In this document: positions 7,750 through 60,183 of the stretch, in pieces
Position numbering within the stretch: position 1 is the first letter of the stretch
How the letters are laid out: each line of letters opens with the position of its first letter
Assembly (NCBI GenBank): GCA_964016885.1
Contig: OZ024742.1
Coordinates: 280,550,001-280,614,000, forward strand
Direction of reading: 5' to 3'
DNA length: 64,000 bases
Source of the DNA: Eledone cirrhosa
Lineage: Eukaryota
Position numbers and translations under genes: made by a program
The notes under the pieces: model-generated
The model's database searches: none
Seen by the model: the letters and a program-made list of their open reading frames with translations, nothing else
Told to the model about the DNA's origin: nothing

Positions 7750-8309
7750 GCATTCGCAACCACGCATTATTCTTCTTTCTTCTCATGTTTTTTATATATA
7801 TTTACCTCGGCTGCGTTTGTCTGTTTCTCTCTTACTGCTTCGTCGTTCTATCTGTTGCTGTCACCTTCTTTCGCCCCCTCTGTCAGTTACACTTTCTCTC
7901 GACTGACCTCTTCCTGGCACTTCCACTCACTCACTCTCTGTTTCTGCCCTTCTCACTTCCCCACGTTTGGCTAGTAGTGGGTTCCCTTGTTGCTCACATC
8001 TCACTCACGTCGGACAGTTTATATCTTGATCGCTCATGAAATCCACCAGCTTATGCTGACCAGATATCCATGTTGCTTGTTTATTCCCATCTTTGCGTTG
8101 CTTTCATCCTTCTATGTTGTTTACATGTCTCACTCGCTTTACGCGATATACTTGTCCCAATAGCTTTTTATAGTTATTGCTCGCACCAACCTGAGATATA
8201 TGATTTTTAATGCGACGAAATATCAATGATGGTTGGCAAATCACTGACGAAGGACTAATTTTATTATATCTAACCCATGTGCAACCACGCAGTCTTCTTC
8301 TTTCTTCTC

Positions 8310-8315
<6 letters not shown>
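7750..8315 (+). mobile_element. Pyrimidine-rich non-autonomous repeat with a terminal direct repeat and an HHR remnant
   Basis: gcaaccacgca..ttcttctttcttctcatgtttt occurs at 7756 and 8281 (period about 525). atcaCTGACGAaggactaa at about 8240. Homologous to 58826-59356. Confidence 0.65.
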
Positions 8316-8407
<92 letters not shown>

Positions 8408-8418
8408 TGTGTATACAT

Positions 8419-8477
<59 letters not shown>

Positions 8478-8480
<3 letters not shown>

Positions 8481-10517
8481 ACTAAGTGCGGACCTCGTGC
8501 TTGCGACAGGTTCAGAAAAGAACTCACAGCCTCCTTTAAAGGCTTCAACCTCTCTATACAGGTGGAAGCCAATCTCTCGGTCGTTAATTACCTCGACGTT
8601 ACCCTCAATTTATTGAATGTGTTGTATTACCCGTATAGAAAGCCGAATGATACGCTTAATTACATAAGTAAGCATTCCAACCATCCTGCCAGCATAACCA
8701 AGAACCTGGTAAGAAACGTTTCGTTGAGGCTTTCCCGTCTTTCCACCAACGAGCGTATTTTCAACGACCATTCCACTTATTACAATGAAGCTCTTGCTCG
8801 AAGTGGATTTGTCGATAAGGTAGCATATACAGAGTACGAACATATACCTAGAAGAAATAGATCCCGTCGCATTTGTTGGTATAACGCACCATATAATATG
8901 GAGGTGGCCACACCATTAGCCAAGACCTTTCTTTCCCTTATTACGAAGCATTTTCCCCCTACACATAAATATAGTAACATTTTTAATAGAAATACTATTG
9001 AAATGTCTTACTCTACGACTCCTAAACTTGCACATAACATCACAGCTTCAAATTTAGCTAAACTACCTAGCCGTAGGAACACGTGCAACCCTGTAGTTAG
9101 TACTAACTGTAACTGTAGGAATCGGGCTGATTGCCCCCTATCCGGGAAATGCCTCTCTAGTAACATTGTCTACAAATGTAAGGTTGTAACACCCACGTCC
9201 CGTAGGGCCTACATAGGGTTAACCGCCAATAGTTTCAAGCAGCGTCTTTACATGCATACCCATTCTTTTCGCTACCCTCTAAGAAGGAATATGACGTCAC
9301 TTTCAGCTTATATCTGGAGTCTAAAAGACAACCACACCCAATATAAGTTACACTGGGAGATCCTAGCTAGGGCTAGATCGTATAGCGGAAATAAAATACC
9401 ATGTGACCTCTGCGCCGCTGAGGCCCTGGAAATACTCTACGCCACAGACCACATCTTAAACAAAAGATCTGAGGCAATTTCGGCTTGTAAATATAAATTG
9501 CACAAAACTTTCCTGTATTACAGCCCCACGTTATACCCTAACGAATAGTACGATCTATACGTGGATATTTTACGTCTTGATGAGGGAGCTAAGTATATGG
9601 TTTGTTTATTCCTTTACTTATTTGCATAGGTAAGTATATTCTACCCGTATGTTTTGTGAAGGTACGTATAACTTCTCGTACGTATATTTGATTGTTATGG
9701 CGTATAATTTTATATATTCTGGTACATATGGTTTGGCTATGTGTATACGGGAGTTTTTGCGTCTGTGTGAGTATGCAGGTTCGTACGTATGGTGGGTGTG
9801 TGTATATGTGTACTTCTTGTTTTAGTTGACTTACGTCTCCGAACATTCGTGTATTTATATGTAGGCATGTGTGTGCGCTTGTTATATACGTATTTATTTA
9901 TTCATATACGTTTATATAATTATTTATTTATTTGTATACAAGCATACACACACACACATATTTATATGTGCGTGGTTTTTTATACCTATGGTAAGGTTTT
10001 GCGTATGCTTGTGTATGTACGTATTTGTTTGCGTGTATGTATTTATTTACTTTGTTCTTAACTCGGTAGCGGAGATTCATTTGGTCTCCTAGTTAGAATT
10101 TTAGTCTACGACTTCTGCTATACCATTTACGTGGTTTTGTCCTTGCGTGCTATTGTTCTCCACGCTCCACATATGACGTATTATCTTCGTTTTTTCGTTC
10201 ATTGCCAGAGAACGTCTCTATGCACCACCTAAGAGAACATTAGTCTACGACCTCTTTTATACCATAAACGTGGTTCTGTCTTTGCGCGTAATTGTTTTTC
10301 ACCGCTCCCATTAATGACGTATTATTCGTTTTTTCCCGTTCTTTGCCAGCGAACGTTTCCACGAACCAAAGCATCGTCTTCCTGTCTTCCACCGGTTGCA
10401 ACGTTTTTTGAAATATCCACTTCTGCGTTTACAGATTGACTTTGTTAGTTTCAGAAGATCCCGTTAAGGGTGAAAGCAGCGATTCTTTGCTTAAACTTTA
10501 ATCTGTTATTTTAATAA

Positions 10518-12009: not shown

Positions 12010-12200
12010 ATATGTATATATGTATATATATACACATATATAGAATTCACAAGAATCAAAGCTATGTTCAAAGCATTTATTCACTTACAATTGTTTCATC
12101 GAAAACTAGCCTTGGGATCTTTGGAGAATTTTTCAATGTTTGCACATATAATTGACCTCCTTTCCGACGCAAGGGACATACAGATACATATATATATATA

Positions 12201-13700
12201 TTGATGTACACTGGGAGCGACAGCCCCCACAGCCATAATGCAATACCTAGCAACCAGACTTCTACACAACATAATAACCAGCAGGTTAACTTCCAAAATT
12301 ATTGTAAATGTAGATCTAATAGTCCCTGCCCTTTAGATAAAAACTGCTTAATGAAGGACATCATATACTCATGCACCGTCAGAACTAGAAACTCTTCTGA
12401 AACCTATATAGGCTCTACTTCGAACTGCTTCAAAACCAGATACAATTCATACCTCCATTCTTTCAAAAAACATATTCTAGCCATCTCCACTTCACTATAT
12501 AGCTACATACACTATCTAAAATCTAGAAATAGATATTATACTCTTCAATGGGAAGTGATAGGTAGGGCGGCATCGTTCAGACCACCTAATAAATCATGTA
12601 ACCTCTGTCTACTAGAGACCCATACTATAATCTTCTTGAACCTTAATCTCCTTAATAAAAAATCGGAGTGTTTGCGTCGTGCCAGCACCGCTTCCGGCAC
12701 TCCTTCCAAAACTTTAAACCCAATATATAACAATGTCAGACTTGAACCCATCACCGCTTCTAACACCACACCTCAAGGGCACACCTTACACCACAACACC
12801 ACACTCTCTGCTCCACCCTATCTCGACACAAATCATTCCATCTATCTATAACTTTATACCCTAGAAATATCTCCATAATCACCTACTTTTAATATAATTA
12901 CTTTCAATTACTTATAATTATGTAGTGATATAATACAGTCTATATAAACCTTAAATACTAGATACGGCAGTGAATTATATATGCAATTGTAATTAAATGT
13001 ATGGAGTAATAACATTGGCTATATATAGGATTAATTTATTAACATAATAGATCTGTCTAACTTATATGTAGGGTGCTGCAATGAATTATATATGAATTAT
13101 ATAAGAATTATATATGCAAGTATAACTTGATGGATAGATTAATGACATTGTAAATGAGGGATGTATTTGTCTGCCCTATTTGGTTTTGTCATGCAAACAG
13201 CCATACGCTACTCCATAACTTACCAGGGGTTATGTAGACCACATTCTAATACGTCCTCTGATGTGTTTTGAGAGTAGACTGTATTTACAGTGAACTTTGA
13301 TATAAAGATATGGCACTTTGTATGGGAAATTCAATTGCGGCACTATATAATAAGGAGTAATCAACTTACTATAGATACCTTTAGTACATTATGATAGAGT
13401 AGACTGTATTTAAAATTGAAAAATATATATAAATATATAACCGTTTATATAAGGGACTCAATTGAGGCACCATATAATGTATGTTAGAACAATGAATTTA
13501 GTTATGAGAATCAGCTAGTTACCTCCCCTTACGCATTAACTCCCCTTAATTACACACATAATTCCGGGTAATAAACTACTGTAAATTCTCGCAGTAGAAA
13601 GAACCTATTCTATAAATATGGATTAAATAACACTGAGCTTCAATACACTACAATAATTGAATGCATCAAACATTCACTACGGAATCATCGTTACTTATGT
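12201..13700 (+). mobile_element. PLE 3' fragment: GIY-YIG endonuclease and 3' UTR
   Basis: CKCR..CPLDKNC..DIIYSC..YIGST..FKTRY..CNLC..LLNKKSE, with a frameshift near the end. The 3' boundary is approximate. Confidence 0.85.
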
Positions 13701-13733
13701 GATGGATGTAAAAACGATTTTCTTGACGAGAAA

Positions 13734-16589
<2,856 letters not shown>

Positions 16590-25201: not shown

Positions 25202-28032
25202 ACATAGAAATTTTCACAAACTATAAAGTAGGTGAACATGTTAAACAAACTAAACTTAGAAAACTGAAAAAAAAGTACAGTATAAAATCAACAAGTTACA
25301 TAGACATGCTGATAGAAATAATCAAACAAAAAGTGTCTGCCAAAGCTGCTCGTATAAGGCGCTTTGAATAACAATCTAGATTATATAAGGACAATAATAT
25401 GTTCAAAAACAACCAAAGAAACTTCTACAGAAAAATTGGTAAGTCAACAATAGCTGCTAAATCAATACCACCCAAGGAGGAAGTGCAAGAATTCTGGGAA
25501 AAGATCTGGGCCGAAAAAAAAGTTCATAACATACATGCCCCATGGATAGACAGACAAATGAAAGATACAGCTCACCTTGAGGAACAAATATGGGAAAATA
25601 TAACAGTTGAACAGTTGCGCTTGGCTCTAAGAAAAACCAGAAAATGGAAATCCCCAGGAAAAGACAAAATACAAAACTTTTGGATAAATGCCTTCACAGA
25701 GTCTCATGAGCTGTTAGCCCAACTTTACAATGAAATTAAGGAGCCAGAAAAGATACCATCATGGCTAGTTAACGGCATTACATTCCTGCTTCCGAAGAAT
25801 GATGAGATAAACAAGCCCAAAAATTACAGACCGATAACTTGCTTGACCACAATGTATAACATTTTAACATCAGTCCTAACTGAATACACATATGACCACC
25901 TGATAACAAATGACCTATTTCCCATTGAGCAGAAAGGGTGTAAACGAGGCTCATATGGCTGTAAGGATCAGCTTCTGGTTAAGAAAATGATACTGGAAGA
26001 TTGTCATAATAGACACAAACATGTATCGATTGCTTGGATAGATTATAAAAAAGCATTCGATAGTTTGCCACACAGTTGGATTGAAAAATGTTTAGAGATT
26101 TTCAAAATATCCCCCTTTGTCAGGAGGTTTTTGTCATTCAGTATGAAGACATGGAAAACGACACTCCTTTTGAATAGTGAAACAAAATCACTGGAAGCTG
26201 GAGAAGTTAATATTAATTGTGGAATTTTTCAAGGTGACTCTTTAACACCGCTTTTATTCTGCATCGCACTTATACCATTAAGTAAAATGCTCAATGAAAC
26301 AAAACATGGATATAAAGTCTATGACAAAACCATTAATCACTTGTTCTACATGGATGACCTGAAACTATTTGCAAAAAATGATGAACAATTGCTGTGGAGC
26401 AGTTCAGTGATGACATTAAAATGGAGTTTGGACTAGACAAATGCGCCAAAGCAACGTTCACCAGAGGAAAGCTGCTGAAGTGTTCAGACATTAATCTTGA
26501 TCGGGGGAACGTGATAAGAGAACTTGATCAAGAAAAAACTTGTTTGTGAAGGAGACGGAATCAAGCACTCGACAATGAGGGAAAGGATAAGGAAGGCATG
26601 TTACCGCAGAGTAAGAGCAATCTTAAGAACGGAATTGAATGCAAGGAATAGGATCGATGCCATAAACACGCTTGCCATACCAGTAGTAACCTACAATTAC
26701 AATGTCATCAACTGGTCAAGCACAGAGATCCGTAGGCTCGATACAAAAATTCGAAAACTCTTAACCATGCACAGAATGCATCACCCTAAGGCAGATATAG
26801 ATAGAATATATCTCCCTAGGAAAGAAGGAGGACGTGGGATAATCCAGTTAGACATTGCGTTGAAAACTGCAACAATTGGATTATCTACATATCTAAGGGA
26901 ATCACATGATTGGATGATCAAACTCGTTTTGAAACACGAAAGCATCAAAAGATCATATTCCATTACAAAAGATGCACAAAGATACAGTAATGGACTACAG
27001 ATTTCAGAAGTCCCATTTACTGCTGAAATGGAAAACACAGAAAAAGCAAAGCAGGTAAAAGTAACTGCAAAGAAAGAACTGCTACAGAAACTGGCTAAGA
27101 AATGGCAAGAAAAGCCTCTGTATGGAAAATACCCAGAGCGAGCTAACAATCCTGATGTTGACAAAACTTTAACCCATCAGTGGTTGGCATCCTCTGGACT
27201 GAAATCGGAAACTGAAGGACTGATTATATCAGCACAAGATCAGTGTGTGCCAACAAAAAATTACCAAGCCAACATCATAAAAACTGGATGCAGCCCATTA
27301 TGCCGTGTATGCAAAAAACAACCAGAGACCATTGACCATATAATTTCAATGTGCAGTCCTATAGCTCCAACCGAATACCTAAACAGGCATGACAGAGCTG
27401 CACAATACATACATTGGATAATGTGTAAGCATTTTGACCTGCCCCATCAAAAGAATTGGTGGGAGCATCAACCACCTCCCATACTTGAAAAAGATCACAT
27501 CTCAATCTTGTGGAATTTAGCATCCAAACAGACCGAAAAATAGATGCAAATAGACCTGATATAATATTGAATGACTTTAAAAAGAGGGTATGCCTGCTAA
27601 TTGATATGTCTGTTCCAATAGACAAGAATGTATCTATAAAAACATTTGAAAAATTGAGCAAGTATAAGGACCTGGAGATAGAAATTGGAAAAATGTGGAA
27701 ATTGAGAACTAAAACAATACCAGTGGTTGTTGGCGCTCTGGGAATGATACCTAAGGGGTCTAATGATTACTTATCGCAAATCCCAGGAAACCCGCGTATA
27801 GGAGAAATACAAAAGATAGTACTAATGGGAACTGCCCATATACTAAGGACGATTCTGTCAATATAAGTACATCACAAGACTAAACACTAAAGATGCATGT
27901 GTGAGTATGTATGTTCTTTCTTGAACATGGCGGACCTTGTTGTCTCTTGAGGTCACTGGTTGTCACTTGGTGATAACTCGTATGAACATAAAGCAAGATA
28001 AATGCAACTGTAATAATAATAATAATAATAAT
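25202..28032 (+). mobile_element. R4/Dong family B, 5'-deleted duplicate of 32168-34998
   Basis: ORFs are identical to those 6966 bp downstream except KACY versus KECY, and carry the same lesions. (TAA)n tail. Confidence 0.95.
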
Positions 28033-30078
28033 TTACCAACTATAGACCTATCACATGTCTGTCCGTAATGTGGAAACTGTTGACAAGCATTATGTCTGAG
28101 GAAATCTACCATCACCTCCACACAAACAACTTGTTACCGGACGAACAGAAAGGATGCCGAAAGAAGTCCCTTGGTACAAAGGACCAGTTACTTATTGATA
28201 AGATCGTAATGAGGAATTGGAAGAGGAGACACACTGGTCTTGCCATGGGATGGATAGACTACAAAAAGGCATTTGACATGGTGCTTCATTCTTGGATCAC
28301 CAAAAGACTGGAGACTTTCAAGGTGGCAGATAATATCAGACAGTTGTTGGGCAAAAGTATGAAGTCCTGGGAAACAGAGTTAACATCAGCTGGAGAATCC
28401 TTGGGAGGCGTGAAGATCAAGAGAGGTATCTTCCAGGGAGATAGTCTGTCCCCTCTGTTGTTTGTCCTTGCCCTGATGTCCCTGACCATTATACTGCGAA
28501 AAGTGAGAGCAGGTACAAGTTGGGAAAGGGAGAGCTTACCATCAATCACCTCCTATTCATGGAAGATCTTAAGCTCTTCGGGAAGTGCGAGAAGGAGTTG
28601 GATGTGCTTGTTGACACTGTCCGTATTTTCAGCAATGATATATGTATGCAATTTGGTATTAGTAAGTGTGGAGTCATTGTGATGAAGATGGGTAAATTGA
28701 GCAGAAGCAACGGAATCTAGGTGCCAACAGGTGAGATGATAAAGGAAATTGACACTGAAGAAGAATACAAGTATTTGGGTATTCTGGAGGCTGATGACAT
28801 CAAGAATAAAAAAATGAAGGAATTATTAAGATCTGAATACATTCGGAGAGAAAGGAGCGATTTAAAGTCACATCTGAACAGTAGGAATGTCATAAGTGCA
28901 GTAAATTCCCGAGCTGTGGCTATTATTAGGTACAGTGCGGGAATTCTGACATGGAATGTTGCTGTACAAAAAGAAATGGATAGGAAGACTAGGAAATTAT
29001 TGACTATCTACAACATGTTCCACAAGAGGAGTGATGTCGATAGACTCAACTTAAGGAGATCTGAAGGTGGAAGAGGACATATCAGCATAGAGGACTGTGT
29101 TCAGATGGAGAAAAACAACCTTCACAAATACGTGACTGATAGGAAGGAGCCAATGCTCAGAACTGTTCTGAAGGAGAGGACAATAGACCAGGGGATATCC
29201 AGGGAGGAAATAACAACAAGGAGCAAGAGAAGCCTTCAGGAAAAATCCCTTCATATTACCTTCTTTGAGAAAACTGAATGCAGAGATCCACAGACATGGA
29301 ACTGGTTGAAAAGAGGAGACCTTCAAAAGGCTACAGAAGGAATGTTAATGGCTGCGCAAGAGCAGGCCCTCAAAACGAAGTGGTTGAAACACCACATTTA
29401 CAAGGAGGTGGCTAGCCCACTGTGCAGGAACTGTGGAGAGAGAGAGAGGAGACTGTGGCTCACATTGTATCCGAGTGTAAACACCTAGCCCAGACTCGTT
29501 ATAAAGGCTGGAGACATGATGTGATGGGCAGGGTGATCCACTGGCACCTATGCAAAGTAAACAATTTACCACATTCTGAGAAGTGGTATGAGCATAAGCC
29601 AGAGTCGGTGATAGAAAACGATCAGGTGAAGGTGCTATGGGATTTTAGGATACAGACGGACAAGAATCTGGAACACAATAGACCTGACCTGGTGGCTGTG
29701 GACAAATAAAAAAGAGCGTGCATGATTGTGGATGTGGCCTGCCCATTCGACACGAGAGTGCAAGAGAAGGAGAGGGAGAAAATTAACCGATACCAGGACT
29801 TAAAGTGAGAGGTAAAAAGGATTTGGAACTGCCATGAAGTCAAAGTGTTCCCGATTGTCATAGGCGCACTAGGTTCTATCTCAAAAGGGTTACAGGGATG
29901 GTTAAAGAAAATTGACCCCTTCACGCTTTTCGGAACGCTTCAAAAGGCATGCTTGCTGGGAACAGCAAGAACCCTCAGATACGTCCTGAATATCTGAGGC
30001 TGCAGGTAGTGGCTTGATATTCATTCCAACGGACTTTCCAGTTAACCAACATCAATGACAGATTCAAGGAATAATAAT

Positions 30079-31031: not shown

Positions 31032-34000
31032 TAAAAAAGGCAACAAAAAGAAAAACCCCGTGACCAAGAAATACCGGGATGGCGGCCGGCGGGGAATAGC
31101 CGTGTCTCTAGGGGAGAACGACCCCTCTAGTCTTGGTTGACACTCGTTCTAGAAATGGTAACACGAAATGATTACCCCTTGGCGGATAAGGATAAAACGC
31201 GACAAAATAAAGTAAATGTCTAATGATAAAATCTCATACCGGATCAGCCGTCACCCGGGTAAAAAAGGGCCGCGTCCCTCAGAGAGGAACCAGACTGGGG
31301 TCGAAAAATCAGCTAATGGTTCAAACCTTCCCATCACTTCGGAGCTGGAGACTTCCCATAACCGGAATACTCCTACTGTTGGCACTCCATGCTCACCACC
31401 AAGAAATCCAAAGAAAAAGAGAGAAAAATGGTCAAGGGAAGATAATAAAGAAGTCCTTGAGGCTTTCTACACTGCCATGTACTACCCATCAAATACATCG
31501 AATACAGAACAGACATATATCTACTGGAAAAAGAAACATCCCGAAAACAGAGGCTATATTGACAGCAACAAACTAGCCAATATACGAAGAAATATTGTAA
31601 GAAAAAAGTTACTAACTGATATAGAAATTGATCAGATCAAGCTATTAGCACAAAGTCAGCGAAGGGAAAATGAAACATGTGCCAGTGAAAACGAGGTAAA
31701 TTGTAACACTTCGAATCCCAGGGTTGGGGCGGAATCATTGGCAACAGAACAAATTAAAGAAAGGATCGAAAAAGTGGAGGGAGTGCATGCACAGGATGAA
31801 ACTCAAAATGAAAATAATGAGATCGTAAATGATAAAGAAATGAATGAGAATGAACTTGCCAACTTGAAGGATGAAATTATGATCGAATGGATGAAAATGA
31901 AAGAATCTGACATGGGGCAACGAGACACCCTCCCTAAGATCCAGAACTCCAAACAGAACCAAAAGATAATACACAAGACTAACATAATTCTCAAAAACAT
32001 TATCATCACAAACAAACTAAACATTACTGATTTAAATCATCTCTATTATGGATCGGCTAAAGTCACCACTCACTTATGTGGAGTGAAGATGAAAAAACAA
32101 AGGAATTCCCACAAGAAATCTACGTGGCAAGAGAACATCAATCGCCAAATAAACCTTCTCCGATCTGACATAGAAATTTTCACAAACTATAAAGTAGGTG
32201 AACATGTTAAACAAACTAAACTTAGAAAACTGAAAAAAAAGTACAGTATAAAATCAACAAGTTACATAGACATGCTGATAGAAATAATCAAACAAAAAGT
32301 GTCTGCCAAAGCTGCTCGTATAAGGCGCTTTGAATAACAATCTAGATTATATAAGGACAATAATATGTTCAAAAACAACCAAAGAAACTTCTACAGAAAA
32401 ATTGGTAAGTCAACAATAGCTGCTAAATCAATACCACCCAAGGAGGAAGTGCAAGAATTCTGGGAAAAGATCTGGGCCGAAAAAAAAGTTCATAACATAC
32501 ATGCCCCATGGATAGACAGACAAATGAAAGATACAGCTCACCTTGAGGAACAAATATGGGAAAATATAACAGTTGAACAGTTGCGCTTGGCTCTAAGAAA
32601 AACCAGAAAATGGAAATCCCCAGGAAAAGACAAAATACAAAACTTTTGGATAAATGCCTTCACAGAGTCTCATGAGCTGTTAGCCCAACTTTACAATGAA
32701 ATTAAGGAGCCAGAAAAGATACCATCATGGCTAGTTAACGGCATTACATTCCTGCTTCCGAAGAATGATGAGATAAACAAGCCCAAAAATTACAGACCGA
32801 TAACTTGCTTGACCACAATGTATAACATTTTAACATCAGTCCTAACTGAATACACATATGACCACCTGATAACAAATGACCTATTTCCCATTGAGCAGAA
32901 AGGGTGTAAACGAGGCTCATATGGCTGTAAGGATCAGCTTCTGGTTAAGAAAATGATACTGGAAGATTGTCATAATAGACACAAACATGTATCGATTGCT
33001 TGGATAGATTATAAAAAAGCATTCGATAGTTTGCCACACAGTTGGATTGAAAAATGTTTAGAGATTTTCAAAATATCCCCCTTTGTCAGGAGGTTTTTGT
33101 CATTCAGTATGAAGACATGGAAAACGACACTCCTTTTGAATAGTGAAACAAAATCACTGGAAGCTGGAGAAGTTAATATTAATTGTGGAATTTTTCAAGG
33201 TGACTCTTTAACACCGCTTTTATTCTGCATCGCACTTATACCATTAAGTAAAATGCTCAATGAAACAAAACATGGATATAAAGTCTATGACAAAACCATT
33301 AATCACTTGTTCTACATGGATGACCTGAAACTATTTGCAAAAAATGATGAACAATTGCTGTGGAGCAGTTCAGTGATGACATTAAAATGGAGTTTGGACT
33401 AGACAAATGCGCCAAAGCAACGTTCACCAGAGGAAAGCTGCTGAAGTGTTCAGACATTAATCTTGATCGGGGGAACGTGATAAGAGAACTTGATCAAGAA
33501 AAAACTTGTTTGTGAAGGAGACGGAATCAAGCACTCGACAATGAGGGAAAGGATAAGGAAGGAATGTTACCGCAGAGTAAGAGCAATCTTAAGAACGGAA
33601 TTGAATGCAAGGAATAGGATCGATGCCATAAACACGCTTGCCATACCAGTAGTAACCTACAATTACAATGTCATCAACTGGTCAAGCACAGAGATCCGTA
33701 GGCTCGATACAAAAATTCGAAAACTCTTAACCATGCACAGAATGCATCACCCTAAGGCAGATATAGATAGAATATATCTCCCTAGGAAAGAAGGAGGACG
33801 TGGGATAATCCAGTTAGACATTGCGTTGAAAACTGCAACAATTGGATTATCTACATATCTAAGGGAATCACATGATTGGATGATCAAACTCGTTTTGAAA
33901 CACGAAAGCATCAAAAGATCATATTCCATTACAAAAGATGCACAAAGATACAGTAATGGACTACAGATTTCAGAAGTCCCATTTACTGCTGAAATGGAAA

Positions 34001-34998
34001 ACACAGAAAAAGCAAAGCAGGTAAAAGTAACTGCAAAGAAAGAACTGCTACAGAAACTGGCTAAGAAATGGCAAGAAAAGCCTCTGTATGGAAAATACCC
34101 AGAGCGAGCTAACAATCCTGATGTTGACAAAACTTTAACCCATCAGTGGTTGGCATCCTCTGGACTGAAATCGGAAACTGAAGGACTGATTATATCAGCA
34201 CAAGATCAGTGTGTGCCAACAAAAAATTACCAAGCCAACATCATAAAAACTGGATGCAGCCCATTATGCCGTGTATGCAAAAAACAACCAGAGACCATTG
34301 ACCATATAATTTCAATGTGCAGTCCTATAGCTCCAACCGAATACCTAAACAGGCATGACAGAGCTGCACAATACATACATTGGATAATGTGTAAGCATTT
34401 TGACCTGCCCCATCAAAAGAATTGGTGGGAGCATCAACCACCTCCCATACTTGAAAAAGATCACATCTCAATCTTGTGGAATTTAGCATCCAAACAGACC
34501 GAAAAATAGATGCAAATAGACCTGATATAATATTGAATGACTTTAAAAAGAGGGTATGCCTGCTAATTGATATGTCTGTTCCAATAGACAAGAATGTATC
34601 TATAAAAACATTTGAAAAATTGAGCAAGTATAAGGACCTGGAGATAGAAATTGGAAAAATGTGGAAATTGAGAACTAAAACAATACCAGTGGTTGTTGGC
34701 GCTCTGGGAATGATACCTAAGGGGTCTAATGATTACTTATCGCAAATCCCAGGAAACCCGCGTATAGGAGAAATACAAAAGATAGTACTAATGGGAACTG
34801 CCCATATACTAAGGACGATTCTGTCAATATAAGTACATCACAAGACTAAACACTAAAGATGCATGTGTGAGTATGTATGTTCTTTCTTGAACATGGCGGA
34901 CCTTGTTGTCTCTTGAGGTCACTGGTTGTCACTTGGTGATAACTCGTATGAACATAAAGCAAGATAAATGCAACTGTAATAATAATAATAATAATAAT
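31032..34998 (+). mobile_element. Apparently full-length R4/Dong family B element, inactivated
   Basis: Structured 5' UTR, ATG 31216, N-terminal REKWSREDN..LANIRRNI domain, RT (YMDDLK), CCHC and RPDII..D endonuclease to 34832. Stop at 32335 plus frameshifts; (TAA)n tail. Confidence 0.93.
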
Positions 34999-37065
34999 TT
35001 ACCAACTATAGACCTATCACATGTCTGTCCGTAATGTGGAAACTGTTGACAAGCATTATGTCTGAGGAAATCTACCATCACCTCCACACAAACAACTTGT
35101 TACCGGACGAACAGAAAGGATGCCGAAAGAAGTCCCTTGGTACAAAGGACCAGTTACTTATTGATAAGATCGTAATGAGGAATTGGAAGAGGAGACACAC
35201 TGGTCTTGCCATGGGATGGATAGACTACAAAAAGGCATTTGACATGGTGCTTCATTCTTGGATCACCAAAAGACTGGAGACTTTCAAGGTGGCAGATAAT
35301 ATCAGACAGTTGTTGGGCAAAAGTATGAAGTCCTGGGAAACAGAGTTAACATCAGCTGGAGAATCCTTGGGAGGCGTGAAGATCAAGAGAGGTATCTTCC
35401 AGGGAGATAGTCTGTCCCCTCTGTTGTTTGTCCTTGCCCTGATGTCCCTGACCATTATACTGCGAAAAGTGAGAGCAGGTACAAGTTGGGAAAGGGAGAG
35501 CTTACCATCAATCACCTCCTATTCATGGAAGATCTTAAGCTCTTCGGGAAGTGCGAGAAGGAGTTGGATGTGCTTGTTGACACTGTCCGTATTTTCAGCA
35601 ATGATATATGTATGCAATTTGGTATTAGTAAGTGTGGAGTCATTGTGATGAAGATGGGTAAATTGAGCAGAAGCAACGGAATCTAGGTGCCAACAGGTGA
35701 GATGATAAAGGAAATTGACACTGAAGAAGAATACAAGTATTTGGGTATTCTGGAGGCTGATGACATCAAGAATAAAAAAATGAAGGAATTATTAAGATCT
35801 GAATACATTCGGAGAGAAAGGAGCGATTTAAAGTCACATCTGAACAGTAGGAATGTCATAAGTGCAGTAAATTCCCGAGCTGTGGCTATTATTAGGTACA
35901 GTGCGGGAATTCTGACATGGAATGTTGCTGTACAAAAAGAAATGGATAGGAAGACTAGGAAATTATTGACTATCTACAACATGTTCCACAAGAGGAGTGA
36001 TGTCGATAGACTCAACTTAAGGAGATCTGAAGGTGGAAGAGGACATATCAGCATAGAGGACTGTGTTCAGATGGAGAAAAACAACCTTCACAAATACGTG
36101 ACTGATAGGAAGGAGCCAATGCTCAGAACTGTTCTGAAGGAGAGGACAATAGACCAGGGGATATCCAGGGAGGAAATAACAACAAGGAGCAAGAGAAGCC
36201 TTCAGGAAAAATCCCTTCATATTACCTTCTTTGAGAAAACTGAATGCAGAGATCCACAGACATGGAACTGGTTGAAAAGAGGAGACCTTCAAAAGGCTAC
36301 AGAAGGAATGTTAATGGCTGCGCAAGAGCAGGCCCTCAAAACGAAGTGGTTGAAACACCACATTTACAAGGAGGTGGCTAGCCCACTGTGCAGGAACTGT
36401 GGAGAGAGAGAGAGGAGACTGTGGCTCACATTGTATCCGAGTGTAAACACCTAGCCCAGACTCGTTATAAAGGCTGGAGACATGATGTGATGGGCAGGGT
36501 GATCCACTGGCACCTATGCAAAGTAAACAATTTACCACATTCTGAGAAGTGGTATGAGCATAAGCCAGAGTCGGTGATAGAAAACGATCAGGTGAAGGTG
36601 CTATGGGATTTTAGGATACAGACGGACAAGAATCTGGAACACAATAGACCTGACCTGGTGGCTGTGGACAAATAAAAAAGAGCGTGCATGATTGTGGATG
36701 TGGCCTGCCCATTCGACACGAGAGTGCAAGAGAAGGAGAGGGAGAAAATTAACCGATACCAGGACTTAAAGTGAGAGGTAAAAAGGATTTGGAACTGCCA
36801 TGAAGTCAAAGTGTTCCCGATTGTCATAGGCGCACTAGGTTCTATCTCAAAAGGGTTACAGGGATGGTTAAAGAAAATTGACCCCTTCACGCTTTTCGGA
36901 ACGCTTCAAAAGGCATGCTTGCTGGGAACAGCAAGAACCCTCAGATACGTCCTGAATATCTGAGGCTGCAGGTAGTGGCTTGATATTCATTTCAACAAAC
37001 TTTCCAGTTAACTAACATCAATGACTGAGACTCAAAGAATAATAATAATAATAATAATAATAATA
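34999..37065 (+). mobile_element. R4/Dong family A, 5'-truncated
   Basis: Begins at NYRPITCL immediately after the tail of the previous element; contains frameshifts and stops. Confidence 0.93.
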
Positions 37066-45392: not shown

Positions 45393-45453
45393 TTTCATTC
45401 TGATGACTGAAAGCAAATTCTGTTTGCTTTCAAGAAACCACTGGTAAATGAAA
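45393..45453 (+). ncRNA. Type I hammerhead ribozyme
   Basis: tttcatt CTGATGA c tgaaagcaaa ttctg tttgctttca a GAAA ccactgg TA aatgaaa: 7-bp helix I, 10-bp helix II. Confidence 0.82.
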
Positions 45454-50574: not shown

Positions 50575-53030
50575 AACAAACGCAACTACACTAACCAACA
50601 TTAATAACACAGCATGTGATATTGTTAAGAAACTGAAAATTGACGACAGAACGGTACCCCTATCTCCAGCTACACCGACTTTTAATCTGAAGGACCATAA
50701 GGATAACTTCGATACTAACCCTTAAATTAGATTAATATGTCCACAAAGTCCGATATAGGTAGAATTAGTAAGTACATATTAGATCGTATTATCCCCCAAG
50801 TTAAGGCTAAGGTAGATATTAAATTATGGGGTAATACTCATCAGGCAATAAGATGGTTCAATAACAAATCTTCTTTTATTCAATTCGATATAGACGAATA
50901 CTATTCCTCTGTTTCACCCGAAACCCTGCATAAGGCCCTCTCTTTCGCTAAGACTAACTCGGACCTCACAAACGAGGAAATTAATATTATACTTGAAGCT
51001 AGACGCACAGTAGTGCACTTTGAAAATAGTTATTGCGTCCGCAGAGATAGACCCTCGGAATTCGACATTATGATGGGTTCTAATGATTCGGCGGAGGTCA
51101 CGGATCTGGTTGGGATCTATATAGCCCATAGACTCCAGAGCGAATTTACGGACCTCCACGGCGGAATATACCGCGACGATACACTTCTATTAGTCAAGAA
51201 TATGAACAAACAAAACCTAGAAAGGCGACGTGAAAACATTAGGAAACTTTTCTTAGAACTAGGGCTTAATATTACCTTCGAACACAATCTTAAGGTGGTC
51301 AACTTCTTGGATGTCACCTTCAACCTTAATAACGGTAATATAAAGCCATTTCACAAACTTAATGAAAATCTCAAGTACCTTAATGTAAAATCGAACCATC
51401 CTCATTCCATTATTAAATCTATCCCTAAAAAATATATCCATAAGGATCTCCCGACTGTCGTCTAATTTGCAGACCTTCAACGAGCATGCTGAATATTATA
51501 ATGACTCACTTAGAAAAGCTGGTTACTGCGAGAAAATAGAATATCTAGACGATAACCACATAAGTACTAGGAATAAAACACATCTAAGTCGAACTAGTAT
51601 TGCACCACACACACATATCAATAGGCATACTAATAGGTGCAAACCAGCAAATAGAGTCAGACGCAGAGAGTACATATGGTATAACCCCGTGTACAATTCT
51701 TCTATTAGCACTAAGATTATCTCACAATTCTATACACTAATCAATAAACACTTTACAACTTCACATAAATACTATAAAATCTTTAACTCGCGCACCATTA
51801 GACTCTCATACTCCACTGCACCTAACATAGAACAACTAATTAAGAAACTCAACCCAGCAATACTGAACAACGCACTAACACGCAACTACAATCCCACCAA
51901 ACTATCCAGGATTCTACTGCAAAACATAAAAATAATTGTAACTGCACCAAACTGGTTTGGTGCAGTTACGTGTTACAGTTACAATTTGGTGCAGTTACGT
52001 GCCCACTGAATAACCAGTGCCTAGCACGCAATATTGTCTACCGATGTACAATAAATTCCGGAACCAACAAATGGTATTACGTCGGATGTACCGCAACTTC
52101 TTTCAAGGCTCGCCTATACCAACATCGATCTTCGATAAGGCACGAGAAAATGCGCTCCGTAACAACCCTCGCCGATAAAGCCTGGCGGCTCCGGAGGAAC
52201 AATCAAGCATTCTCCCTTGATTGGCAAATTATTGCAGGTGCGCCTGCATATAAGCAAAATCATCGATTCTGCAAGTTATGCAATTTGGAGACATACTGCA
52301 TTTTAACGTCGGTAAACAAACTTTGAACAGCAAAATTGAACGTTCTCTATACTGTAACCATCGTTTGAAAACGACTTTTTCTTTTTTTAAATGCATATAA
52401 TGTTACCTTTTTACACCACCGTTTGCAAATTTCTGTTTTATATGTTTATACACAAGATATGGCTTTCTATAATAATAGTACTAAACACTGTTTTCTGGAC
52501 CCCTTTAGAAATAACCTGCTACTATAATAGCCCCAATAACTTGTCTGTGACACTGTACCACTTTGAACCCTTTAATTAAATTTTGTCCGAACAACACCAC
52601 TAGCAGAATTTACTTCCCCCGCCAACCCTAACACGCCTCATTAAGCTAACTGCTGCCAAAACATTCTCCCCTTACTCACTTCCCTCTTCCCCTTCTCTTC
52701 CTACCTCCTTCTTTATCTTTTATCTAGTGTATAAAATATTTTCCTATCATTCCAATACAAAGGTCTGACGACATGGTGTGTTTGCTTACGGTGTACCTTC
52801 GGTTTATGATAATATTTTTATATTATTCAAATAGCGAGGTATAGGTAACCCATACACTATAGAAACAATTGTTACCTAATAAATTCTGTATACCCGCATT
52901 TCCATTTCATAAACTTCTTCTCCATATTTTCTCCGGATTTTAAAACACACTTTATTATACGTTGAGCAATCTCTGACGTCGGTTGACTCCATCCAATGCA
53001 ACTACTTAGTAACAGTGGAATACAAATTTA

Positions 53031-53033: not shown

Positions 53034-53093
<60 letters not shown>

Positions 53094-53099
<6 letters not shown>

Positions 53100-54660
53100 A
53101 CAGGGAGAAGGAGACGATTATTAGGAAGAAAAATTTTTTTTTTTCCTTTTTTTATCTCTCTCTCTCTCTCTTTTCTGGGTTAGAAAATTATTAAAACGAA
53201 ATGTTTTACTTTGTGTGAAGTGTTAAGGTAATAGTTGATTTATTTATTAATTAACAATGGCATTTATTTATCTATTTATATATTTAATAATTGTCTATTA
53301 CCGGTTTCAGCATTTTTATGCTTTATCAAATGATAGTGGTATGTATTGGTGTAGAATGGTGGTGTTGCACATGTTACAGAATTTGTGCAGAAAGAATAAT
53401 GTTATTTACAAACAAGGTTTATGAAGTGAAAAGAAAAAAAGAAAAAAGAAATAAAAGGAACGTAATGTCGAGCATAACAATTCAATGTGACAGAAAAATA
53501 ATGTTATTTACAGGCATAGTTCTTGATGTTAAGTAGATCAAAATGTGTTAATATAGCAAGGGTGCTTAGTTGATCCATGATTCCATGATGGAAGCAAATT
53601 GTGGACTAGGGTTTGATATGATTTCCTTTTTTAGAGAGTTAATATGCAGGGCGAGGCAATTCATGCTGGATGATATTTAATTTATTTAAACAAGGACAAT
53701 ATTTCACAGTTAAACACAACTTTACTTGTGCATATGAAAACCTAATCTATGTTTTGACCTGCTCAGGTTGTCAAGAGCACTACACAGGACAGACAAAAAA
53801 TAGCCTACGTCAACGTATGACCGTCCATAAATCATAAATTAAAATACAGGAATACAGAAAGATGGCATTTAGTGAACATAGCGGCCAATTGTGCACAGAA
53901 CCAACATCCAAACATTAAAATGTTATCCATTTACAAATTCATAGACAACGTACTTTCATCCATCGTAACAATAGGGAAACATATTTCATTAACAAATTCC
54001 AACCTCTAATAAATGCACTAAACTTCGGACCAAACTAAAACTGGAACAAACAATCAAACATTTACAAGAGTTACCTCCCTCACACCCTACCTAATCCTTT
54101 TTATTAAATGAATTAAATATCATCCAGCATAAATTGTCTCACCCTGCATATTAACTCACTAAAAAGGGAAATCATATCAAACCCCAGTCCACTATTTTCC
54201 TCCATCATGGAATCATGGATCAACTAAGCACCCTTGCTATATTAACACATTTTGATCTGCTTAACATTATTTGTTCATTCACATTGAGTTTTTATGCTCT
54301 ACATTACGGTCCTTCTTTTTATTTGATTTTTTTTTATTTTCACTTCATAAACTTTGTTTGTAAATAACATTATTCTTTCTGCACCATTTCTTTAAAATGT
54401 GCAACACCAATGCATACCACTATCATTTTATAATGCATAAAAATGCTGAAACCAGTAATAGACAATTATTAAATATATAAATAGATAAATAAATGCCATT
54501 GTTAATTAATAAATAAATCAACTAATACCTTAACACTTCACACGAAGTAAAACATTTCGTTTTAATCATTTTCTAACCCAGAAAAGAAAGAGAGAGAGAT
54601 AAAAAAAGGAAACAAATATTTTTTTCTTCCTAATAATCGTCTCTTTCTCCCTGTTTTCAT
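53094..54660 (+). mobile_element. Neptune-like PLE GIY-YIG fragment between ~580-bp inverted repeats
   Basis: From 53691 it translates to FTVKHNFTC.YENLIYVLTCSGCQEHYTGQTKNSLRQRMTVHK and ends RETYFINKFQP. 53094-53690 is the reverse complement of about 54100-54660. Not shown in the ORF track. Confidence 0.8.
53295..53336 (-). ncRNA. Minimal hammerhead with U3-A8 core and weak helix I
   Basis: ctatcat TTGATAA agcat aaaa atgct GAAA ccgg TA atag. The mirror copy at about 54420-54461 is degenerate. Confidence 0.55.
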
Positions 54661-54690: not shown

Positions 54691-54746
54691 TATTTATTAA
54701 AATAACAGATTAAAGTTTAAGCAAAGAATCGCTGCTTTCACCCTTA
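54691..54746 (-). mobile_element. Extreme 3' end of the 8.5-kb PLE family
   Basis: The reverse complement matches about 10465-10520. A related fragment lies at about 18298-18348. Confidence 0.85.
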
Positions 54747-54752
54747 TATATA

Positions 54753-55106
54753 TATATAAGTATGTATACGTACATACATATATGTATAAAGACGTACAGT
54801 AGTATGTATATATATATACATACATGCACACATATATATATGTACGTATGGACTAACCGAACATTTATTATAATGCTCGGTGTGTTTGTAAACAAACATC
54901 CCGATTTAAGCCGCATTAAGGGCAACGATGGTTGGTAAACACTGTACGGTTTAATTCGGGATGTTTGTTGACAAACACACCGAGCGTTATAATAGATGTT
55001 CGGTAAATCCATACGTACATAAATATATCTGTGCATGTATGTATATATATATACATACTACTGTACGTCTGTATACATATATGTATGTACGTATACATAC
55101 TTATAT
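54753..55106. repeat. Fold-back with about 160-bp arms
   Basis: 54753-54915 pairs with 54945-55106; no HHR core seen. Confidence 0.85.
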
Positions 55107-55933
55107 TTAAGTAATAGCCGTACTAAGAGTGAGAAATGAAACTTCGTTTCATTTTTTCCGTTTATATTATGTAATGATACCAAGAGATTTTTGTATCAAC
55201 TTTGTATAGATATTTAATGTAAAAAATGAATTTCGAAACTAATATGCTTTAAGCATTAATGCTTTGATAACTCAGCTTTAGCCGCCTTAATATTAGCTAA
55301 TCGTTAAGTTATAGAATTAATGAATTCTGAAATTACACGTACAGTTATTTCGAATTACATTTCCTGTAAATTATTCATTAATTTAGATCGTATTGCAATA
55401 CGTCTTTTTTTTTAATATATCATTCAACCGTTGTAACACACCGCGTCGCTCCATCGATTTCGCTTAGCGGGTAACGTTTCTTTTCTCTTGGTTTTGCCTA
55501 GCGGATCATATTTAGGGTCGATTTTGCTTAGCAGTACATATTAAACGTTGGCATTGCTTAGTGGGTGATATTTTACGTTGTTTTTATTTATTGGGTTATA
55601 TTTTGCGTCAGTTCCTTTTAGTGGCTACCATATTGTAAAGGACTTGCTTATTAGCTCATATCTTGTTCAGTCCTCATATCTTGTGGCTGTGAGTCACATG
55701 GTATGAATATACTACAAAACCATAGCCGCTTACTGACTTGTGGTTCATCAAACGGAAGAAGATTTCTTCCTCCAACTTTTGAAAGCCTATAAATGAAGTT
55801 GAGGAGGCATGCGACTCAGGGATTAAGGAGTTGAATTTAACATAATTTGCCCGAGCTTTCCATTTGCGCTGCATTTTTTAGGAAGCTATTTTATTTCACG
55901 TTATTCTGTCTGCCATGTGGTGCGACCGGGAAA

Positions 55934-57865: not shown

Positions 57866-57917
57866 TGCTTCGTGATGATTTCTCCCGAATGAAACAGTTC
57901 CGGCCCTGTAGAAGGCA
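57866..57917 (+). ncRNA. Degenerate type I hammerhead (C3 to G)
   Basis: tgcttc GTGATGA tttc tccc gaat GAAA cag..ctg TA gaaggca. Confidence 0.55.
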
Positions 57918-58242
57918 TTTCTATATTAAATATATATCAATATATATATAAAAACAAATAACGAAACGAAATTAAATTTCGCTTCGTTTGTAACTCACTT
58001 TTGTATGACTGACGCTTAAACAATTAAGTTAAAAATGTACATCCATATATGTATACTGAAATACTAGTATGCATATGAATACACACACGTATACATATGT
58101 AGATGTACCAAGTCTTTCACTGGTTACTTTACTGTGAGTATCCAGCTATTCTGTATGTAAACACACAGAGAAACCGGTTTTTAGAGTCATACTGGTTTTT
58201 GAGGAAACACCTTTCCTCTATTCTCCAGAAAGCCAGACAAGG

Positions 58243-58287
58243 AATATTGAACTAGTTTCGTTGTTGTTACAACTCATCAGCAATATT
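58243..58287 (-). ncRNA. Minimal type I hammerhead ribozyme
   Basis: aatattg CTGATGA gttg taacaa caac GAAA ctag TT caatatt: perfect core and helices. Confidence 0.9.
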
Positions 58288-58708
58288 TACCTATCTACCG
58301 GCCTTTCTGGAGAATCGTAAAAGCACATATCGTTATATGCTTTTTCTATGAAAATTAGTAGTGGGCAGACTAATTTGCATAGAGTGTGAGTACGTACCGG
58401 TTCAACGGAGACGATAAAAACAAATAACGAAACGAAATTAAATTTCGCTTCGTTTGTAACTCACTTTTGTATGACTGACGCTTAAACAATTAAGTTAACA
58501 ATGTACATCCATATATGTATACTGAAATACTAGTATGCATATGAATACACACACGTATACATATGTAGATGTACCAAGTCTTTCACTGGTTACTTTACTG
58601 TGAGTATCCAGCTATTCTGTATGTAAACACACAGACAAACCGGTTTTTAGAGTCATACTGGTTTTTGAGGAAACACCTTTCCTATATTCTCCAGAAAGCC
58701 AGACAAGG

Positions 58709-58753
58709 AATATTGAACTAGTTTCGTTGTTGTTACAACTCATCAGCAATATT
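58709..58753 (-). ncRNA. Minimal type I hammerhead ribozyme, second copy
   Basis: Identical to 58243-58287. Confidence 0.9.
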
Positions 58754-58825
58754 TACCTATCTACCGGCCTTTCTGGAGAATCGTAAAAGCACATATCGTT
58801 ATATGCTTTTTCTATGAAAATTATA

Positions 58826-59352
58826 TATTATTCATATGTAACCCATTTGTAACCACGCAGCACGCCATGTTTTCATATTTTTCATATATATTTTCCTCCG
58901 CTCTGACCCGTCTGTTTCTTTCTTACTGCTACATTTTTCTCTATATCACTCACTTCCTTTTACCCCCTCTACCAGTCAATCTCTCCGTTAGCCTATTCCT
59001 CACACGTTCACTCACTCACTCTCTGCTACTCCCTCTCCTACTTCCTCTCGTTTGATCTGTGCGAGATTTTCCTCACTCACACTTCGACCAGGTCGGATGT
59101 TATTTATTCTCTCTAGTCTACGATTTACGATTTCACAGAACTTATGTTCATCGATTTCAGGGACTTGACTCCTTCTTCCTAACTCTTCTTTGCATTACCA
59201 TCTTTGTTTCTTTACTGTCTCGCTCGTTCGCCCTATTTACGTGTCCCAACGACTTTCTTTAGCCGTTGCTCGCACCAACCAGAGGTATATGGTCTTTAAA
59301 ACCATGAAATACCAATGAAGGCTGGAAGATCACTGATGAAGGACTAAATTTG

Positions 59353-59495: not shown

Positions 59496-59775
59496 TAGGT
59501 AGAACGGTGAAATACTTGTGTTTGTACCAAATCAAGCATTCTATGCACAGGCAGAGTGTATATAATAGAAAAAACAGGAAGTTGCGTTTACATATGAAAA
59601 ATATTTATTGCGTACCAGATCGATATGTATAAATATTTTTCATATGTAAACGAAACTTTCTCGTTTTTTCTATTATATATATATATGTAGAGGTTATATT
59701 TAATTTGTTGGGATACAACAAGCAAAATTTTTTTATAACTGATATAAAGTACTCAACAAATTATTGGAGTAAATA

Positions 59776-60183
<408 letters not shown>

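Follow-up and report, generated by a model that had tools for sequence, protein, structure and literature searches.

Introduction

Metazoan retrozymes that lack long terminal repeats (LTRs) consist of tandem non-coding units of low GC content with one type I hammerhead ribozyme each; their RNAs are strongly self-paired, a short palindromic helix III favours dimers, as in the axolotl, and they co-occur with Penelope-like elements (PLEs) (PMC7229834). In vertebrates, such non-LTR retrozymes have already been argued to be PLE derivatives, with 24 of 57 Xenopus families linked by sequence to known elements, nearly all of them PLEs (Li, Clavereau and Pollet, 2026; 10.64898/2026.07.22.740005). PLE insertions display an inverted 5' copy, a tail that is often found at one end only and, in case of the Hydra clade, (TA)n targets (Craig et al., 2021; PMC8557442). 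In vitro, the tail was found to lie between two start sites of the reverse transcriptase (RT), and both target strands were cut and extended by a protein that is predicted to act as a dimer (Frangieh et al., 2024; PMC11167929). A circular RNA as template of the RT has been proposed earlier (PMC7229834; Cervera and de la Pena, 2014, PMC4209133). How such a circle would give rise to a genomic array, and where the tail and inverted arm of PLEs come from, has so far been addressed by proposals only. Here we describe a stretch of 64,000 nucleotides from Eledone cirrhosa (contig OZ024742.1, positions 280,550,001 to 280,614,000; hereafter the window, to which positions refer unless stated otherwise), which contains at 57948-58823, on the minus strand, an insertion with two hammerheads that resembles metazoan retrozymes in all of the listed respects. 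The insertion belongs to a non-coding hammerhead family that is almost certainly mobilised by PLEs, and it likely arose when a PLE RT-endonuclease copied one, probably circular, RNA of 466 nucleotides that would have been edited by ADAR.

A young family of non-coding hammerhead repeats

As described in an earlier note on this DNA, the insertion contains two direct repeats of 410 bp with a period of 466 bp and has no ORF. The repeats (57948-58357 and 58414-58823) differ at three positions (58033, 58170 and 58218), and the longest ATG-started frame within the 876 bp comprises 50 codons. The same note had termed this arrangement a dimer. Although two near-identical copies are present, the 56-bp spacer between them is part of the 466-nt monomer, and the structure is therefore a 5'-truncated tandem of 1.88 units and not a pair of terminal repeats. 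With position 1 assigned to the first base 3' of the cleavage site (58715, minus strand), the one-armed insertion covers unit positions 359-466, 1-466 and 1-302 and includes a full cleavage-to-cleavage monomer, the predicted template circle, at 58250-58715.

On the minus strand, both copies carry the hammerhead AAUAUUG-CUGAUGA-GUUGU(AACA)ACAAC-GAA-ACUAGU-U^CAAUAUU, which consists of a helix I of 7 bp, a helix II of 5 bp, the palindrome ACUAGU and a GUU site. The upstream ribozyme is located at 58709-58753 with a predicted cut between 58716 and 58715, the downstream ribozyme at 58243-58287 with a predicted cut between 58250 and 58249, and helix I holds the two ends of the monomer together. Each copy matches Rfam Hammerhead_HH9 with 38.6 bits (E 6.8e-7), which is below the gathering score of 52, and the pair accounts for both matches of a hammerhead descriptor in the window, whereas 100 Markov shuffles gave on average 0.02 matches per window under loose and 0 under strict settings. 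The intact type I hammerhead with its palindromic ACTAGT, which had been noticed in each repeat, was in this way confirmed, and the 13-bp stem around the downstream ribozyme (58220-58315, pairing 58220-58232 with 58303-58315) reads as claimed and is repeated 466 bp higher. The label 'minimal' had to be abandoned, since helix III is present as a palindromic insertion of two nucleotides, as in the PLE type of D. virilis (PMC4209133); a strict minimal hammerhead (min-HHR), without helix III or loop 3, is ruled out by the ACUAGU palindrome. Other hammerhead-like cores identified in a loose scan at 45400 (+), 42619 (-), 2297 (+) and 7248 (-) belong to different families and failed the stricter descriptor.

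We have searched the 3.0-Gb animal assembly for related sequences. A DNA search gave 155 matches from the best 39 of 726 candidates, of which the full-length ones are 98-100% identical. The hammerhead pattern is found 9,462 times and the long 3' end followed by TATA 2,453 times, both with a control of 0, the second number setting a floor of at least 2,453 insertions, and the unit is thus not single-copy. Its length varies between 466 and 469 bp, and four main subfamilies are found at distances of 0.6, 2.8, 3.0 and 11.2% from the window unit, the most distant of which cuts at GUC. Helix II has changed on both sides between subfamilies. The family is young. A pattern allowing for a longer helix II gave 25 matches, of which 21 are loci of this family, one belongs to a sister family and three remained unmatched. 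Units directly abut in tandem arrays of up to about 30, and two or more tandem hammerheads are found in one arm of 69 of the 146 insertions analysed below. The far longer arrays that are also present include a satellite-like array of the 469-bp subfamily on contig C1 at about 95.60-95.68 Mb (L117-L124, L256), which is organised as a six-unit higher-order repeat of 2,817 bp and contains some broken hammerhead cores; this period was considered as a PLE and rejected, since it equals six units.

As multicopy family that forms tandem arrays and lacks an open reading frame, the element is retrozyme-like, as had been suggested. It contains no LTR pair, the repeats being a permuted tandem, with primer-binding site and polypurine tract left without formal search, and a plant-type LTR retrozyme with a type III hammerhead in two LTRs that surround an internal region was rejected based on the type I topology and the tandem units. 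Every testable feature of a non-LTR retrozyme is found in the element, which constitutes a new family of that kind. The sister family shows the same layout, the ACUAGU palindrome and both end motifs, with 270 of 498 aligned columns being identical, and its hammerhead, with a GUA site, is matched 11,655 times. A two-armed relic of this sister family, which has lost its hammerhead, is located within the window at 54739-55168, with a short and a long end motif between AT runs.

The predicted fold of the monomer has an energy of -152.8 kcal/mol (z -9.8), compared to -131.1 kcal/mol (z -6.7) for the opposite strand. For the precursor from the window, a double hammerhead is calculated to be 9.7 kcal/mol above the predicted minimum, compared to 15.2 kcal/mol for two single ones. 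Because the double hammerhead is by 5.5 kcal/mol less costly, cutting should require two units, and perhaps a protein, as is the case for the anole PLE. Over 43 pairs, 97.7% of cells are paired and three pairs have changed on both sides, in a count of 18 of 103 haplotypes that were chosen by hand and where kinship among sequences can inflate the number. Two pairs of the 13-bp enclosing stem similarly show changes on both sides within the family. A hairpin at unit 325-369 (58347-58391), which contains the octamer ATGCAAAT, is kept in both retrozyme families and harbours the densest hotspot (336-345 and 357) of the A>G variants described below.

Insertions display the anatomy of PLEs

We have defined the boundaries of 146 insertions, of which early searches had supplied 65; the other 81 come from a further 80 stretches of contig C1. 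Since 79 of the new stretches were selected by the long end and one by the short end, one fixed end is built into this set, and for 30 of the early loci the query itself terminated in the long end; the fair subset thus consists of loci found by the hammerhead pattern. Two fixed 3' ends were observed, a short one at unit 228-233 (S) and a long one at about 302 (L), which are about 70 nt apart, whereas 5' ends are scattered over the unit. (TA)n adjoins 226 of 229 S or L ends, within which target-site duplications are unreadable. Among 96 two-armed insertions that are clear of region edges, 87 combine L with S and nine contain one irregular end, while L/L or S/S pairing was found in none of the 96; in the fair subset, 21 of 24 are L/S. 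The arms of these 87 insertions are joined head to head, with an overlap of 1-12 nt in 42 cases, a longer overlap in seven, a gap in 28 and direct abutment in ten, and in 32 of them each arm is longer than one unit.

The insertions thus show PLE anatomy, with 5' truncation, an inverted 5' arm, a tail and a (TA)n target, and the strict L/S pairing is in keeping with a pair of RT subunits, each of which would serve one target strand from a start site of its own. Copying in trans by a PLE, which the earlier note had put forward, is well supported through this anatomy. At the 5' ends of 42 one-armed insertions, we found no PLE coding sequence, and the unit is not the terminus of a coding PLE. In the window copy, the L end (57948-57960, unit position 302), which is the commoner of the two and probably an RT start site, adjoins an AT run. 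The S site (58017-58022), a putative second start site, is internal with a second instance at 58483-58488, and the PLE-type tail of about 70 nt between both sites (57948-58016) forms a long hairpin. At the opposite side, the 5' truncation point at unit position 359 is joined to a short AT run (58823-58830).

Elements in the vicinity appear nested in one another's AT runs. To the left of the insertion, at 57869-57916, a degenerate hammerhead resembles that of another PLE family (L252), and to its right, 58828-59340 is occupied by a different high-copy repeat, which in contigs runs from its end back into its start. Inverted-arm repeats between AT runs at 59770-60084 and at 53088-53530 and 54240-54660 probably represent additional PLE-dependent elements.

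PLEs in the genome and a candidate partner

Fragments of PLEs are present inside the window, with Hydra-type fragments at 8274-9548, 12156-12851 and 50731-52326, and a copy of the element H1 at 13727-15145 with a flank reaching to about 16480. H1 is a very young Hydra-type PLE, intact in many copies, which are 99% identical and contain an intact ORF of 716 residues with the Hydra motifs DKT and CxCx5C. Its ends are 80-83 nt apart, with L/S pairing in nine of nine two-armed loci, and it forms tandems of 3,531 bp, such as the 4.5 near-identical units found at C1:437198329-437214407 of this genome (G000). The H1 hammerhead seems to contain the rare U3-A8 core and a helix III of 6 bp. Two further elements, H2 and H3, have long open frames and two ends, which define a tail of 80-83 nt in H2, where alternate ends are used in five loci, and lie roughly 100 nt apart in H3. 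Since Pfam detected a weak GIY-YIG domain in only one of five PLE frames, the clade assignment is based on motifs. First-look counts of 86,000-96,000 candidates suggest that the Hydra-type clade is very abundant in the genome. Based on target and ends, the partner of the retrozyme family is most likely a PLE of the Hydra clade, with H1 being a candidate by its youth only. A comparison of the unit with other PLE flanks in 1.3 Mb of loci, which sample a minority of the PLE families of the genome, gave no match.

The window also contains a tandem duplication of 6,966 bp of fragments of a RT of the long interspersed element (LINE) type (25372-29488 and 32338-36454) with identical translations, which is either a recent duplication or an assembly artefact.

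A probable single template per insertion

We next compared units and arms within insertions. In 32 insertions with at least two units per arm, 6,956 site tests revealed no fixed difference between the arms, and in 42 of 78 insertions with overlapping arms, a variant is shared by every covering unit of both arms, although some of these variants are sub-lineage markers. The two arms agreed in subfamily in all 72 cases, which is weak evidence given that the subfamilies differ in age. In the insertion L116, whose arms of about 7 and 13 units are diverged by 0.05-0.08%, 18 of 18 full units are identical over both arms. Matched cleavage junctions are exact in 415 of 429 cases, in a pattern that would miss badly broken junctions.

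On a linear multimer, each unit would be edited independently of the others. Where an edit is found in every unit of both arms, a single edited monomer must have given rise to the entire insertion, either in the present round or in an earlier one. A circle that is re-read by the RT is the simplest route to such variants. The variants common to units and arms lend indirect support to a covalent circle, which was probably the template.

A>G variants shared by all units

The observation of three clustered A>G changes in all units of L116 was the starting point for an analysis of variants on the hammerhead strand. The four main subfamilies contributed 104 insertions, in which each variant was scored relative to the consensus of its subfamily. 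Among variants found in all units of an insertion, A>G outnumbers T>C by 19 to 6 in the first set (n=47) and by 42 to 14 in 80 new loci (n=111). Conversely, variants confined to single units are symmetric, with 16 A>G and 26 T>C of 206 in the first and 32 and 30 of 286 in the new set, summing up to 48 versus 56, and variants in part of the units show no excess, with eight A>G of 83. Distinct sites provide a better count, since events share ancestry within a subfamily. Among 85 distinct all-unit sites, 33 are A>G and 11 T>C (p 4e-4), with a ratio of 28 to 6 where the direction is fixed by the other three subfamilies and of 24 to 10 where sites are counted by position alone (p 0.009). Under a stricter filter, which keeps variants found in at most two other insertions and drops recurrent hotspots, the first set contains 14 A>G and one T>C of 23.

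ADAR avoids a G on the 5' side of the edited base (PMC5625713), and a 5' G is found at one of 33 all-unit A>G sites, compared to 13 of 48 single-unit A>G variants (p 0.006). A>G accounts for eight of ten changes that recur in more than one subfamily, and one insertion carries seven. The coding PLE H1 shows no excess of A>G (9 versus 25, in a looser count). In the window, A268G is present in both copies of the unit, at 57982 in the 3' copy and at 58448 in the middle copy, as candidate for a fixed A-to-I edit; at 57982, where the plus strand reads C, 99% of the depth of run X1 shows T, which is the consensus base. From this spectrum, the A>G bias quite probably originates from ADAR. Loci with the adenosine-deaminase domain PF02137 and RtcB loci are both present in the genome. 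PF02137 is common to ADAT and ADAD.

Proposed mechanism and alternative explanations

In the mechanism that we favour, a locus with at least two units would be transcribed on the minus strand, two hammerheads would pair through ACUAGU as a double hammerhead and excise a monomer, and the monomer would be closed, most plausibly by RtcB, a step that is taken from work on metazoan retrozymes (PMC7229834). A lone circle without partner would remain uncut. ADAR may edit a few adenosines of this hairpin-rich RNA, as suggested by the variant spectrum, and a dimeric PLE protein, for which the Hydra clade is the most likely source, would nick both strands of (TA)n. Sites L and S would serve as the start of one cDNA each, each RT would roll round its template over a variable distance, and both cDNAs would end up joined head to head, often at short overlaps. 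The window copy is likely a one-armed L product of 1.88 turns in this cycle. With its two intact hammerheads it could seed further rounds if transcribed, and we consider it possible, albeit rather doubtful, that the locus is an active source. For the full scheme, in which each insertion is written from one ADAR-edited circle by a PLE dimer whose subunits begin at two different fixed sites of that circle and roll in parallel from opposite strands of (TA)n, we see the chances as evenly balanced.

Several points weigh against this scheme. The whole case is built on genomic DNA sequence. Neither the single nor the double active hammerhead fold corresponds to the predicted minimum, and GUU is a weak cleavage triplet. 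In vitro, eight of nine Xenopus dimers were not cleaved (10.64898/2026.07.22.740005), and hammerhead cleavage was not needed for insertion of the anole PLE (PMC11167929). In six tests of the unit against H1-H3, no significant sequence match was found, the best reaching 8 of 200 shuffles. With respect to editing, the mentioned event counts share ancestry within subfamilies, and the stricter filter gave seven A>G and four T>C of 27 in the new set (p 0.25), which weakens the replication and holds even though this filter drops recurrent hotspots. Moreover, 23 of the 33 A>G sites turn an A-U into a G-U pair, and structural tolerance may thus have a share in the bias; for C>T and G>A there are nine sites each, and tolerance alone would not predict so few. 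Finally, among 15 arrays with at least six full units, three are fully identical and in three no two units are alike, and higher-order periods of 3-4 or 6 units are found in L063 and the array at C1:95.6 Mb. DNA-level growth or multimeric templates therefore also occur.

Sequencing runs do not bear on expression. Run X1 consists of genomic DNA, with cover of unique flanks and of introns; X4, X5 and X6 cover repeats at low depth, contain no spliced joint on the ribosomal L13e gene and look like trace DNA, and the runs therefore provide nothing for or against transcription of the element. A contig of 496 nt (466+30) found in X4 is what a closed cycle should yield, but was not used as evidence, since a homogeneous DNA tandem gives the same.

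As the strongest, although still unlikely, alternative, the same PLE-dependent element could be copied from a linear uncut multimer transcribed from homogeneous master arrays, with a hammerhead that is weak or dispensable and a circle that is not needed. Such a template would be provided by the existing large arrays and would fit the higher-order periods in L063 and at C1:95.6 Mb; the energetic cost of the active folds favours an uncut multimer, and uncut RNA was the main substrate of the anole PLE in vitro (PMC11167929). However, it predicts edits in single units, whereas the A>G excess is confined to all-unit variants, and variants that are fixed in 10-20 units of both arms require a step in which one unit becomes all. 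The preservation of hammerhead and stems with double changes equally speaks against a dispensable ribozyme.

It is less likely again that a single linear monomer, once cleaved, serves the RT repeatedly through jumps from its 5' end back to its 3' end, in a pseudo-rolling process that involves no covalent circle. This process would explain single-template arrays equally well, and the ends of the linear monomer are held together by helix I. Template jumps usually add or lose bases, whereas nearly all matched junctions are exact, and the 5' truncation points are scattered over the unit with no pile-up at the cut site. Related retrozymes are, moreover, largely circular in vivo (PMC7229834).

Slightly lower still, we rank the possibility that monomer insertions have been expanded and homogenised at DNA level, by slippage, unequal exchange or conversion, and that the A>G variants stem from selection on RNA structure or from strand-biased mutation instead of ADAR. 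The heterogeneous and higher-order arrays support such expansion, and the preponderance of G-U pairs among A>G sites and the non-significant replication under the stricter filter agree with an origin other than editing. In contrast, DNA-level growth does not account for arrays that end at fixed S and L sites in both arms, nor for the low divergence between the long arms of L116, and neither the avoidance of a 5' G nor the recurrence across subfamilies is predicted by it or by selection, while H1 as coding PLE lacks the A>G excess. That the dimer is a mere pseudo-LTR end of a truncated coding PLE, as its PLE-type ends and the hammerheads in PLE pseudo-LTRs of this genome might suggest, is largely refuted by the 42 one-armed 5' flanks, none of which share sequence or lead into an ORF, by the lacking match of the unit to the ends of Hydra proteins, by units that are directly consecutive in long arrays and by nearby PLEs that are separate insertions beyond TA runs.

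If a PLE-copied, edited circle is indeed the template, the family would offer direct in vivo evidence that retrozyme circles are templates of retrotransposition, it would account for two general features of PLEs, the inverted arms and the tail at one side only, and it would imply that RNA edits are written back into the germ-line genome, where they drive the evolution of the element. A young and numerous family, its sister family and intact PLEs with the same end rule together provide a genomic test that can be counted, the strict L/S pairing and the all-unit edits make two sharp predictions, and the unit is a small and defined substrate for an in vitro test.

Comparison with known systems

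In the literature on cephalopod hammerhead repeats, we found no description of this family, which may be listed in supplements or repeat libraries, and the main text of an octopus repeat annotation, in the portion concerned, contains no mention of ribozymes (PMC13282606). Similarly, publications on retrozyme editing and on rolling or twin priming of PLEs, supplements mostly aside, revealed neither shared edits nor an L/S rule. With 466-469 nt, the unit is longer than the examples of metazoan retrozymes, which comprise about 170-400 nt, and the reverse-transcription step, which the relevant parts of that study propose only, is here informed by the insertion ends, the arms and the shared A>G variants; conversely, expression was reported for metazoan retrozymes, whereas the present family is known from genomic DNA alone (PMC7229834). 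The retrozymes of Xenopus likewise co-occur with PLEs and are found as monomers, dimers and multimers, with lengths of 51-972 bp that encompass the present unit, but local tandem growth was proposed for their arrays, whereas the young arrays described here look template-made, and their link to PLEs was drawn from sequence and not, as in our case, from the structure of the ends (10.64898/2026.07.22.740005).

With PLEs of the Hydra type and their relatives, the family shares 5' truncation, partial tandems, an inverted 5' copy, a tail at one end, (TA)n targets and hammerheads, and the non-autonomous multicopy Chlamys elements constitute a parallel (PMC8557442). Differences concern the tail, which measures about 70 nt, and 80-83 nt in H1 and H2, compared to 30-40 nt, the one-tail pattern, which appears here as strict pairing of a long and a short end, and the lack of an ORF. 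The Poseidon PLE PAc also has two internal RT start sites that define a tail, an AT-rich target of which both strands are extended, a predicted dimer and a hammerhead upstream of the starts; it is, however, a coding element that was tested with linear RNA, and in the sections describing them its two sites are not assigned to strands (PMC11167929). The same dimer logic was described for PLE hammerheads, where circles were proposed to account for copies of more than unit length; unlike these, the present hammerhead is not a strict min-HHR, is without the extra base before helix II and sits in a free-standing non-coding unit (PMC4209133). While retrozymes are thus already known, this comparison suggests that the long/short rule and the edits shared by all units are new elements, and the genomic evidence on the mechanism of a retrozyme is in this family unusually direct.
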